From Minisyncoccota bacterium (GTDB lineage Bacteria; Patescibacteriota; Minisyncoccia; Phycocordibacterales; UBA9973), in NCBI GenBank assembly GCA_041666045.1, contig JBAYHR010000003.1, positions 2,208 through 66,207 of the forward strand: 64,000 nucleotides of DNA. Direction: 5' to 3'. Below, piece by piece: positions 14,527 through 16,671 of this stretch (its first letter is position 1; each line of letters begins with the position of its first letter). The notes beneath the pieces are model-generated. The model did not search any database. It saw only the letters and a program-made list of their open reading frames with translations, and was not told the DNA's origin. Both the position numbers and the translations under genes were made by a program.

Positions 14527-16671
14527 ATGGATAAAAAAGAAGCAGAAAAGAGGATAAAAAAATTGCGTGCTGAAATTGCTCGCTTAAGAGAGGCATATCA
14601 CATTGAAAATGCGCCAAATGTTACAGATAGTGTATATGAATCTTTATCTCGTGAACTTAAAACACTTCTTGAAAAATATCCAGAATATAATGATATTAAT
14701 TCTGCTGAGAATAGAGTTGCTGGAAAACCATTAGATAAATTTGTGAAAGTAGAGCATAAATCAAGAATGCTTTCTTTGAATGATGTTTTTTCTGAAGAAG
14801 AATTATATGATTGGGAGCAGAGAAATTTGAAATTACTTGGCTATGGTAAATTTAACCCCGTTAGAAATCGCGAGGGCTCGCAGCGACCCTCTATTTCTAA
14901 CGGGGTGAATTATTTTTGTGAAGTAAAATTTGATGGACTTGCTGTGTCTTTAATTTATGAAAATGGAAAGTTTGTAAAAGGAGCTACTAGGGGAGACGGA
15001 TTTATTGGTGAAGATATTACAGAAAATTTAAAAACAATACAATCAATTCCACTTTCTCTTTCTGGAAATTTTCCAGAATATATAGAAGTTAGAGGGGAGG
15101 CGATAATGTCTAAAAAAACATTAATTGTATTAAATAAAAAAAATGAAAAAGAGGGGAATCAGCTTTTTGCAAATACTAGAAATGCAGCAGCTGGAAGTTT
15201 ACGACAATTAGATCCAAAATTATCTGCAGAAAGAAAATTAGATTTTTTTGCTTATGATATAGCTGAAGTGGGGTGGGCTTCGTCACCTGCAAAATTTTCT
15301 TCACTGCGCCCTTCCCTGAGTACAGGGTGGGACCCTCGCGAAGAAAATTTCACAGATGACTTCGCTTTAAAAACTCATTCTGAGAAACATGCTCTTCTTA
15401 AAAAGCTTGGTTTTAATGTGGACAATAATGATGCAATTTCTAATAATTTAGAAGGCGTGATTTCTTTTATAAGAAAATTTGAAAAGATTCGTCCTGATTT
15501 TCCTTATGGAACAGATGGTGTCGTTATTTCTGTTGATGATTTGAAATTGCAAGAAACTTTAGGGGTAATAGGAAAAGCTCCACGATATATGTCTGCTTTT
15601 AAATATCCAGCAGAACGTGCTACGACAATAGTGAAGGATATTAAAGTGAATGTAGGACGTACTGGCGTGCTTACTCCGCTTGCTATATTTGAGCCGACGC
15701 TTGTGGCTGGATCTACAGTATCAAAAGCAACTCTTCACAATATGGATCAAATAGAACGTCTTGATTTGAAAATAGGAGATACTGTTGTTATTGAAAAAGC
15801 TGGGGATGTTATTCCGAAGGTTGTTGAAGTTCTTACAAATATGCGAACAGGCAAAGAAAAGAAATTTAAAATGGTTAGTAAATGTCCTGTGTGTGAAAGT
15901 AATATTGAGAAAAAAGAAATTTCTGAAAAAAAAGAAAAGTCTGTCGCATATTATTGTTCTAATCCTAAATGTCCTGCAAAAAATGAAAGATATTTAGAAC
16001 ACTTTGTTTCTGTGTTTGAAATTTATGAGCTTGGTCCAAAAATCTTACGAAGATTTAAAGATGAAGGTTTAATAACAGATGCATCAGATGTTTTTACTCT
16101 TACGAAAGAAGACATTGCTCCGCTTGAAAGATTTGGAGAAAAAAGCGCGGAGAATATTGTGAAAGAAATAGAATTAAAAAAAAGGATTCCACTTTCTCGT
16201 TTTCTTTGGGCTCTTGGGATATTGCATGTCGGAGAGGAGACTGCGAGAGATTTAGCCACAACTTTTGGAACTTTAGAAAAATTAATCAATGGAAATGCTG
16301 AAGAAATAAATGAAATAGAAAATATCGGCCCTGCTGTTTCAAAAAGTCTTTATGAATTTTTTCATGATAAAAATAATTTAAACTTCATAGAAAAATTGCA
16401 GAAAAATGGAGTAATTATTGAAAAAGTAGAAAAGAAAAAAGCTGGAAAGTTTACAGGGTTAACTTTTGTTTTGACTGGAACGCTTTCTAGTATGTCTCGT
16501 GAATTGGCAAAAGAAAAAATAATAAATTTAGGCGGAAAAGTTTCTGGTTCTGTTTCAAAAAATACTTCTTATGTTGTGGCAGGAGAAGAAGCTGGATCAA
16601 AATTAACTGATGCTCAAAAGTTAGGAGTAAAAATAATAGACGAAAAAGAATTTTTAAGTCTTATTAAATAA
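14527..16671 (+). CDS. ligA: NAD-dependent DNA ligase LigA
   Basis: KxDG adenylation motif ([12 protein letters not shown]), OB fold, Zn finger CPVCES...C...C, HhH and C-terminal BRCT (FVLTGTL...[10 protein letters not shown]). Carries two in-frame palindromic insertions. Confidence 0.9.
14857..14905 (+). repeat. in-frame palindromic element in ligA (IR arms CCCCGTTAGAAAT/ATTTCTAACGGGG, GC-rich core)
   Basis: 13-bp perfect inverted repeat flanking CGCGAGGGCTCGCAGCGACCCTCT. Translated as [18 protein letters not shown]. Confidence 0.8.
15291..15351 (+). repeat. second in-frame palindromic element in ligA (arms AAAATTTTCTTC/GAAGAAAATTTC, GC-rich core)
   Basis: Core ACTGCGCCCTTCCCTGAGTACAGGGTGGGACCCTCGCG. 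It contains CCCTCGCG, the reverse complement of CGCGAGGG in element 1. Confidence 0.75.

Follow-up and report, generated by a model that had tools for sequence, protein, structure and literature searches.

Selfish palindromes that colonise essential genes in frame have so far been treated as a peculiarity of Rickettsia. Tiny mobile palindromes also include the small dispersed repeats of cyanobacteria and the GC clusters of yeast mitochondria, some of which are nested and some of which lie in frame in AT-rich genomes. According to a 2024 review of MITEs, the Rickettsia palindromic elements (RPEs) measure ~100-150 bp, are confined to Rickettsia, and fall into ten families, with a separate conserved peptide for each (Ogata et al., 2000, 2002, via PMC10969869). 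That review merely speculates that such in-frame colonisation may occur elsewhere (PMC10969869). REPs are GC-rich palindromes of 20-40 bp with a GTAG or CGTC head, which are extragenic, have no target-site duplication (TSD) and are tied to RAYT (PMC3733652). PiggyBac elements show the variant TSDs TAAA, TCAA and CTAA, and TIRs with the 5' ends CCCTT, CCCTC and CCCAT (PMC10813416).

The DNA analysed here, hereafter the window, is a 64,000-nucleotide stretch from a Minisyncoccota bacterium with a GC content of 31%. Its ligA gene (14527-16671, + strand) encodes an NAD-dependent DNA ligase of 714 amino acids with Pfam adenylation, OB, Zn, HhH and BRCT domains; 120 homologues, which carry the names Paceibacterota/Minisyncoccia, are 69-89% identical to it. 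Inside this gene lies a 50-bp element at 14856-14905 (+ strand), composed of a left arm CCCCGTTAGAAAT (14856-14868), a 24-nt core CGCGAGGGCTCGCAGCGACCCTCT (14869-14892) and a right arm ATTTCTAACGGGG (14893-14905). The original prediction recognised the perfect 13-bp arms, but placed the start one base late and so arrived at 49 bp with a 23-bp core. With the flanking A and T included, the perfect inverted repeat extends to 14 nt. The predicted contrast between a GC-rich core and an AT-rich setting is real, as 75% of the core is G or C. Folding of the element as RNA, which had been proposed as a check, gave -34.1 kcal/mol (z = -6.0), and none of 200 shuffles did as well. A loose form of the arm motif occurs ten times in the window where 5.1 are expected, an excess that is weak alone since three of 100 shuffles reach it. 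The paired arms are a stronger signal: across the window, 35 perfect inverted repeats span at least 10 nt, and shuffled sequence yields 6-17. Only two of the 35, both within ligA, have GC-rich cores.

Together with its 4-bp duplication the element measures 54 nt, or 18 codons, and the frame used contains no stop codon. Translation of the open reading frame (ORF) places the encoded 18-residue segment in frame and directly N-terminal of the KxDG motif, as had been noted. In an AF2 model of LigA, which is of moderate quality (mean pLDDT 71, with low scores in other segments too), residues 109-125 form a coil with pLDDT below 50 between a helix (90-103) and a strand (129-135). The insertion lies in an adenylation-domain loop that directly precedes the strand bearing the catalytic lysine.

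Alignment of orthologues supports the earlier suggestion of a lineage-specific indel. The closest relative (L006, 88% DNA identity) carries an identical element in ligA, and in L001 (86% DNA identity) the site is empty and shows no scar. The 18-residue segment occurs in four of 121 close LigA sequences, distributed over three separate lineages whose nearest neighbours are without it; the solved LigA structures from Geobacillus and S. aureus, also without it, have 6 residues where the LigA of the window has 26. The ligA element is a lineage-specific insertion, not ancestral sequence. On its left is TTAA (14852-14855), where relatives with an empty site read GAATTTAATTAT, and on its right is TGAA (14906-14909), followed by TTATTTTTGT just as in the empty site. 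These two copies of the TSD differ at one of four bases. The copy at the same ligA position in L005 has a perfect TAAA/TAAA duplication, and in the window the target, as reconstructed, was possibly TTAA.

In all three carrier lineages the element sits at exactly the same nucleotide of ligA, which requires that site preference or selection be strong, or that recombination transferred the element. The shared position, and the recurrent indel hotspots seen in LigA orthologues, would also fit an ancestral, vertically inherited loop that was repeatedly lost and whose palindromic form would stem from chance or local template-switch mutation. We regard this history as extremely improbable and already contradicted. 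Few orthologues carry the segment, and the core is identical at 24 of 24 positions between LigAs that share only 71-76% of their protein sequence. Furthermore, the same 50 nt recur in unrelated ORFs and at intergenic sites with 4-bp duplications of their own; at five loci (L138, L151, L207, L211 and L245), copies in other ORFs match the ligA element at 48 of 50 positions.

Two further copies lie in the window, at the intergenic places where the arms had been reported to recur, 16718 and 52949. The first (16718-16784, + strand) is 67 bp long and has the same TIRs, with one G:T mismatch, around an AT-rich core; it ends on the A of the ATG of an ECF-S gene. It is a clean 71-nt insertion, missing from both L006 and L001, and is flanked by TGAA on the right (16785-16788) and by CTTG in place of TGAA on the left (16714-16717). 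The ligA site and the 16718 site thus each exist in filled and empty form among close relatives. The second copy (52950-53068, + strand) spans 119 bp between dnaG and rpoD, as these genes are identified by Pfam. It ends on the A of the rpoD ATG, between perfect TGAA duplications (52946-52949 and 53069-53072). A motif search also returned a solitary arm-like match, ATTTTTAACGGGA, in a prepilin peptidase gene (11867-11879, - strand); we looked for a partner arm for it and found none, and it is perhaps a remnant, or matches by chance.

The window holds two other palindromes that lie in frame. Palindrome B (15282-15360, - strand) is a 79-nt sequence with a GC-rich core that lies in frame in ligA and is unrelated to the element described above (A). 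Its minus strand folds at -52.7 kcal/mol (z = -8.5). It is absent from L005 and from the solved LigA structures and is shared with L001, with a compensatory change; as a possible TSD it has CTTCG repeats 82 nt apart, a distance that is not a multiple of 3. Palindrome C (43252-43300, + strand) lies in frame in trmD, and the same core is present in ligA of L006. The recurrent indel hotspots of LigA orthologues also hold several other hairpin families. A survey of indels in window genes against syntenic relatives covered too few loci, and found palindromic indels in ligA only.

The search for further copies of the arm motif was productive beyond the window, and found it in unrelated genes at over 240 public loci. 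Our survey comprised 124 copies across 120 species-genome loci, and the GC-rich core occurs at 120 or more additional metagenome loci. Copies are mostly 40-70 bp long, and some reach 100-194 bp. Only the 13-bp TIRs, YCCCGTTAGARRY, are conserved; the paired ends YCCCGTTAGARRY...YRRTCTAACGGGR, which read YCCCGTTAGA, enclose a free interior, so that the GC-rich core of the ligA element is one of many carried between the same arms. Cores range from 14 to 44 nt or more and from 22 to 69% GC, and 23% of them fold better than shuffles. The outermost TIR pair covaries (C/G in 55 copies, T/A in 48, mismatched in 2). Positions 11-13 are variable in sequence, yet complementary in 97, 96 and 90% of copies, and from position 14 onward complementarity is only 23-34%. 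The GTTAGA/TCTAAC of these ends resembles the GTTRRRY core of an integron attC site, a candidate that we rejected because the order is inverted (GTT...AAC rather than AAC...GTT) and a TSD is present.

A 4-bp repeat flanks 90 of the 124 copies perfectly, compared with none of 124 in the control; in the set with GC-rich cores, 51 of 105 have a perfect 4-bp duplication. The duplicated targets are mostly TGAA, TAAA and TTGA, and among the 90 perfect TSDs there are 49 TGAA, 17 TAAA and no TTAA. The remaining 34 copies have no perfect duplication, and at least eight of these, the 16718 copy included, share the left flank CTTG, a recurrence at odds with a simple duplication model. We conclude that the ligA element is very probably a MITE copy, a non-autonomous DNA transposon of the cut-and-paste type. 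The family to which it belongs is a previously undescribed MITE family that spans several uncultured bacterial phyla. Our literature searches on CPR palindromes, MITEs, in-frame insertions and the TIR sequence returned no description of it.

The hosts of the 120 loci include CPR bacteria (61 loci), Planctomycetota (23) and Omnitrophota (18). The original prediction had proposed an RPE-like family new in a CPR genome; the selfish in-frame palindrome stands, and the family extends beyond CPR. A palindrome could also arise during assembly or sequencing, for instance from a chimeric or foldback read. Library artefacts can create palindromes, but the same insertion is found at the same site in independent assemblies from ENA, JGI and Logan, and hundreds of copies come from unrelated projects. 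An artefact is thereby contradicted, and its probability is negligible.

The commonest insertion site of the family is the start codon, not the gene interior. In 51 of the 124 copies (~41%), the end falls on the ATG of an ORF that is 60 codons or longer, and 46 of the 49 TGAA targets read ATGAA. At such sites, ATGAA is regenerated from the terminal A of the element and the duplicated TGAA. Insertion on start codons at ATGAA accounts for the two intergenic copies of the window.

This preference also favours another reading, in which the hairpin functions as a cis-regulatory module of RNA or DNA, a 5'-UTR mRNA stabiliser or a device that bridges or supplies the ribosome-binding site, which has spread and is kept for regulation of the downstream gene and of which the ligA copy is a by-product. 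In Omnitrophota and viral copies, GGAGG lies 11 nt upstream of the regenerated ATG, and composite elements of ~170 nt contain promoter-like AT-rich stretches. The strong covariation of the stem, and an arm G:T mismatch (G:U in RNA) in 30 of 105 copies with GC-rich cores, also count in its favour. However, the cores are unconstrained in sequence, length and GC content, many copies lie deep within ORFs of unrelated genes, and the flank duplications are a signature of transposition. At the variable stem positions 11-13, G:T is nearly absent (0-3%), which points to identity of the two ends at the level of DNA. Rfam 15 gave no match at the elements, either in the window at the gathering threshold or at eight loci with two-hairpin cores at E <= 1; it returned only tRNA, a group I intron and sub-threshold chance matches. 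We therefore consider a module kept for regulation unlikely as the primary explanation. It is nonetheless compatible with mobility, to which it would merely add a benefit.

Within genes, the MITE copies keep the reading frame. In-ORF copies have a length of 2 modulo 3 in 17 of 18 cases, such that length plus TSD is divisible by 3; among the remaining copies this holds for 38 of 106. The 50-nt subfamily with the GC-rich core, to which the ligA element belongs, lies in frame in host genes of at least eight different kinds, among them those for trigger factor, MurG, UvrA, UvrB, UvrD and GyrB. Its in-ORF copies use one orientation and frame in 33 of 40 cases, and the encoded peptide is nearly always PVRxREGSQRxSxSNG. 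These patterns speak to the possibility that LigA lacks the element in its final form, because a miniature intron or intein-like sequence is excised from the transcript or the protein. Self-splicing insertions are common in CPR genomes (we observed a group I intron in L018 and an intein in GyrB of L194), and the hairpin is very stable. Removal from RNA, however, would not require the frame to be kept, yet all but one of the in-ORF copies keep it and avoid the frame that contains stops. The dominance of one peptide reading indicates selection on the translated product. The element has no intein motifs, and to our knowledge 50 nt is far below the size of any self-splicing intron. We consider removal very improbable.

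How does this family compare with described systems? Like RPEs, its members are selfish palindromes in frame in unrelated housekeeping genes, where the added peptide is probably tolerated, and they are patchily distributed among orthologues. By description they are set apart from RPEs by their hosts (CPR, Omnitrophota and Planctomycetota), their smaller size, the conservation of the 13-bp ends only, a clear 4-bp TSD, and a niche that is mainly the start codon. The family resembles RPEs in effect, but none of the features tested indicates kinship with them, and it is a classical TIR/TSD MITE. We know of no parent IS for it, unlike other MITEs. Cyanobacterial small dispersed repeats and yeast GC clusters differ from it in host and sequence, and we know of no defined combination of a 13-bp TIR and a 4-bp TSD in either. 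REPs are likewise short GC-rich palindromes in many copies; the present family differs in its YCCCGTTAGA ends, its TSD and its many intragenic copies, and no RAYT match was found in the scanned ORFs of the window. With bacterial MITEs such as Correia/CREE, RUP, ERIC and Nezha it shares TIRs, a TSD, a non-coding nature, many dispersed copies and occasional in-frame fusions, and, as in those families, some copies may carry promoters or ribosome-binding sites (PMC10969869). Unlike most MITEs, which measure 100-400 bp, it is much smaller, its interior is not conserved, its target rebuilds a start codon, and it crosses phyla.

Searches for the mobilising enzyme covered the loci, the window and viral contigs. 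In the 0.9 Mb around the 124 copies, TIR pairs 90-8000 bp apart with equal flanks were separate MITEs or composites only, and no autonomous element was among them. All-versus-all clustering of 873 ORFs from 120 loci of 8 kb recovered housekeeping families only and no transposase. Pfam gave no transposase, HUH or RAYT match for ten otherwise unassigned ORFs of the window. Viral contigs scanned with a single-TIR 14-mer yielded mostly chance matches, with no convincing long pair and no transposase. The GC-core element itself had no BLAST match among cultured plasmids and phages.

The ends and the duplication suggest a lead. Like piggyBac/IS1380 elements, the family has a 4-bp TSD and short TIRs with a CCC-rich 5' end; the TIR of T. 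ni piggyBac is 13 bp, CCCTAGAAAGATA, compared with CCCGTTAGAAAT here. Unlike in those elements, TTAA is rare among the targets, most of which are TGAA, TAAA or TTGA; an additional Y/R pair sits outside the CCC, and no transposase of the piggyBac/IS1380 type or any other lies near any copy in the sequence searched. A putative transposase making 4-bp staggered cuts, for which a piggyBac/IS1380-like DDE enzyme is our best guess, would mobilise the copies in trans. Copies would persist only where they are harmless, either at a start codon, where ATGAA is rebuilt, or in frame in a permissive protein loop. In ligA, the element would be read through by transcription and translation, giving the ligase a hydrophilic, probably disordered peptide that it can tolerate. 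One could envision a broader scenario, which we offer tentatively and whose parts are unlikely all to hold together. In it, the family would form the non-autonomous part of a bacterial system of the piggyBac/IS1380 type, one with precise excision that passes between phyla, and would home to ATGAA start codons and rebuild them. Some subfamilies would act as mobile 5'-UTR cassettes that deliver their own ribosome-binding site or promoter, and the CTTG flank would be carried over from the donor by transposition without DNA synthesis. In CPR, the family and the other hairpin families at LigA hotspots would be a major source, so far unrecognised, of the loops inserted into essential proteins.

In-frame colonisation of essential genes is now shown in CPR/Patescibacteria, with a clean signature of transposition. 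An element of 40-70 bp with 13 conserved bases at each end is near the minimum for a transposon. Mobile DNA, and not adaptation, may account for many of the "lineage-specific insertions" in CPR proteins. Gene callers will misplace start codons where the element duplicates ATGAA, and the elements provide datable presence/absence markers for strain tracking. Finally, the choice of start codons as targets suggests a harmless route of insertion for mobile DNA, or a rewiring of translation initiation.

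The palindrome in ligA occupies window positions 14856-14905 and consists of a left arm (14856-14868, CCCCGTTAGAAAT), a 24-nt core (14869-14892, CGCGAGGGCTCGCAGCGACCCTCT) and a right arm (14893-14905, ATTTCTAACGGGG). The original prediction had recognized it but began one base late and gave the core as 23 bp; the real length is 50 bp. Its host is a 714-aa ORF (14527-16671) that Pfam assigns to NAD-dependent DNA ligase. The core is 75% GC, compared with 31% for the window, and as RNA the surrounding 71 nt have a folding energy of -34.1 kcal/mol (z = -6.0; 0/200 shuffles as good). 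The element is flanked by TTAA on the left and TGAA on the right, and with its 4-bp duplication it amounts to 54 nt, or 18 codons. The in-frame reading proposed earlier holds: the 18 residues lie directly N-terminal to the 10-residue KxDG-side segment.

Orthologue comparison bears out the suggestion of a lineage-specific indel. Among 120 LigA homologues (69-89% identity, 663 to 784 aa; those named are Paceibacterota, Minisyncoccia or Nomurabacteria), three carry the segment apart from the query: P0001, P0042 and P0066. With indel columns masked, these four proteins fall into three lineages, and in each the nearest neighbours are without it. The close relative L006, which encodes P0001, shares 88% overall DNA identity with the window and carries an identical element; the other close relative, L001 (P0002; 86% DNA identity), has no trace of it, and its site reads ...ACTGAATTTAATTATTTT.... 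Where the window's protein has 26 residues, the solved LigA structures of Geobacillus and S. aureus have 6. An AlphaFold model (mean pLDDT 71) shows residues 109-125 as coil with pLDDT <50, between a helix (90-103) and a strand (129-135). Judged from the alignments, the segment is a lineage-specific insertion, and inserts of this type would be translated as tolerated surface loops. The core is unchanged (24/24) between ligA genes whose proteins share only about 75% identity, and the inner arm triplets vary between the three lineages but are always compensated (AAT/ATT, GGT/ACC, GGC/GCC). The copy in another carrier, L005, has a perfect TAAA/TAAA duplication, visible in the protein as IN[...]IN. 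The element sits at the same nucleotide in all three lineages, with different duplications.

A scan for TCCCGTTAGA-N20-50-TCTAACGGGA, using one genome per species, returned at least 124 elements at at least 120 loci. The stem is exactly 13 bp long; at position 14 and beyond, complementarity is no more than 23-34%. Positions 11-13 are variable (R, R, Y) yet 97, 96 and 90% Watson-Crick complementary, with 0-3% G:T, and the outermost pair covaries (C/G 55, T/A 48, mismatched 2). The cores, among the matches listed, are mutually unrelated: AT-rich, a single GC hairpin, or two hairpins. A perfect 4-bp direct repeat flanks 90 of the 124 listed copies, versus none of 124 when the adjoining outer four bases are compared; TGAA/TTCA (49) and TAAA/TTTA (17) lead, followed by CTCA (6), TCAA (5) and others. 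With its 13-bp inverted ends and 4-bp flanking repeats, the family bears the signature of a MITE. Two-adjacent-hairpin cores, in copies of 62-66 nt (L013, L015, L047, L078, L082, L085, L102, L119), share a layout and not a sequence.

Members of the family are dispersed across 61 loci in CPR/Patescibacteria, 23 in Planctomycetota, 18 in Omnitrophota, 8 in other groups and 10 unclassified, among at least 120 species loci. The other groups are WOR-3, Stahlbacteria, Bdellovibrionales, Oligoflexales, two delta- and one gamma-proteobacterial MAG and one Nanoarchaeota MAG; such single matches may stem from misbinning. In several MAGs of Planctomycetota and of Omnitrophota, three or four contigs bear copies. 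Copies also occur on six viral contigs; searches of collections of cultured plasmids and phages yielded none.

Within the window, the intergenic recurrence of the arms in the original prediction is confirmed by copies at 16718-16784 and 52950-53068. The proposed arm-motif search (12-mer, two mismatches) gave marginal enrichment, 10 matches versus 5.1 expected. The window has 35 perfect inverted repeats 10 nt or longer, versus 6-17 in shuffles, and only the two in ligA have GC-rich cores. The 119-bp copy at 52950 lies between perfectly duplicated TGAA flanks. At 16718, 71 nt have been inserted cleanly between ...AAAATCC and ATGAAAG, and neither close relative has them. There (16714-16717), as in at least 8 copies from other genomes, a left flank (A)CTTG replaces the target copy, which simple duplication of the target does not predict. 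For the window copy the empty site is known, and CTTG came in with the element; (A)CTTG-flanked copies, also seen in L008, L014, L017, L032, L094, L113 and others, lack the extra upstream ATG expected from a true duplication. A lone arm-like sequence in the prepilin peptidase gene (11867-11879, ATTTTTAACGGGA) may be what is left of a copy, or may match by chance. The window's longest perfect inverted repeat is an intergenic palindrome at 41253-41334 with 19-nt arms (AAAAAGAGCGAATACAAAA...) and a 44-nt core. A 318-aa ORF without a Pfam match (17410-18366), its GC reaching 60-67% at the 3' end, adjoins a minus-strand tRNA-Ser(GGA) (18548-18635); both are missing from the syntenic L006 stretch, where truB lies nearby instead.

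Copies persist at start codons and, in frame, inside genes. Among those listed, 46 of 49 TGAA targets are preceded by A, and in 51 of 124 copies the end coincides with the ATG of an ORF 60 codons or longer. The element's terminal A plus the duplicated TGAA rebuilds ATGAA, which accounts for both intergenic window copies abutting an ATG, that of an ECF-S gene (16784) and that of rpoD (53068). Start-codon copies are possibly regulatory. In a subfamily whose core has a partial inner arm and CCTCC (Omnitrophota loci L022, L065, L068, L097, L101, L115; viral contigs L127, L129-L132), GGAGG on the other strand comes to lie 11 nt ahead of the regenerated ATG, resembling an element-borne ribosome-binding site. 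Composite elements of ~156-171 nt (L015 4620-4789, L017 3211-3381, L035 1659-1828, L036 1965-2134, L061 7140-7295, L086 412-581) are bounded by TIRs and a TGAA duplication, enclose a whole second element close to one end, and contain a promoter-like AT-rich stretch with -10/-35-like hexamers. A regulatory role is not required to account for the ligA copy. Eighteen of the 124 listed copies lie deep inside ORFs, and the length is 2 mod 3 in 17 of these versus 38 of the 106 others; at that length, the element together with its duplication preserves the frame.

Scanning metagenomes for the arm together with the GC core found at least 120 loci of the subfamily to which the ligA copy belongs. In 105 listed copies the right arm is recognizable, perfect in 75 and with a single C-to-T change, giving a G:T mismatch, in 30; 51 have perfect duplications (TTGA 17, TAAA 7, TGAA 6). 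The window's AAT/ATT arm variant recurs, 48/50 identical, in five other loci among the matches listed, in other ORFs and each with its own duplication. Pfam-sampled hosts include trigger factor, MurG, two UvrD-type helicases, a P-type ATPase, UvrA, a class I aminoacyl-tRNA synthetase, GyrB, a Wzy/TPR protein and UvrB. One GyrB (L194 3698-7240) holds both an in-frame GC-core element and an intein, and a Parcubacteria contig has a group I intron (L018 3154-3454). Forty listed copies lie deep in ORFs; 33 share one orientation and frame, with the dominant reading PVR[GDNS]REG[SP]QRxSxSNG, and only three have the opposite orientation in the same frame (by our own arithmetic, an even split would give 33/36 with a probability of ~1e-7). 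Stop codons in the targets (TGA, TAA, TAG) account for the choice of frame. They are silent on orientation, so either selection on the peptide or a strand preference of insertion lies behind the bias.

A second in-frame ligA palindrome (15282-15360, 79 nt, GC-rich core) has ends unlike those of the focal family and is unrelated to it. Its minus strand gives much the stronger fold (-52.7 kcal/mol, z = -8.5), and L001 has it with a compensatory inner-hairpin change (CCCTG/CAGGG against CCCCG/CGGGG). A third in-frame GC-core palindrome lies in trmD (43252-43300, CTCGGGTCCTC...CCAGACCAGCTCG); its core also occurs at a ligA hotspot of the closest relative (L006 1349-1381), so this family is mobile too. 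LigA orthologues (P0001-P0120) have four indel hotspots (query residues ~105-127, ~180, 254-279, ~467) occupied by many recurrent hairpin/peptide families, such as PPLLIKERGGGEV, GHPMSTWTSDVQV and NSSALLHPAGGTFR. The ligA of P0041 (L372 1001-3145) contains four in-frame GC-rich hairpins, e.g. CCCCCTCCTTAATAAGGAGGGGG.

The inverted ends, duplications and filled and empty sites suggest cut-and-paste transposition, in which a transposase acting in trans would make 4-bp staggered cuts. No transposase was found in the window, in loci around listed copies or on viral contigs. The 4-bp duplication, 13-bp TIR and CCC-type ends resemble those of piggyBac and its prokaryotic relative IS1380; piggyBac TSD variants include TAAA, TCAA and CTAA, and its TIR heads CCCTT, CCCTC and CCCAT (PMC10813416). 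A TTAA target is rare here, and we treat this resemblance as a lead only. Rfam held no family matching the element, and literature searches on CPR palindromes, MITEs, in-frame insertions and the TIR sequence found no description. The likeness to Rickettsia palindromic elements drawn in the original prediction is apt in how the element works, but it is not one of them. A 2024 review of prokaryotic MITEs treats the Rickettsia elements as the extreme case of in-frame insertion and only conjectures cases beyond Rickettsia (PMC10969869). The element in ligA represents a new family within a known kind, the MITE.
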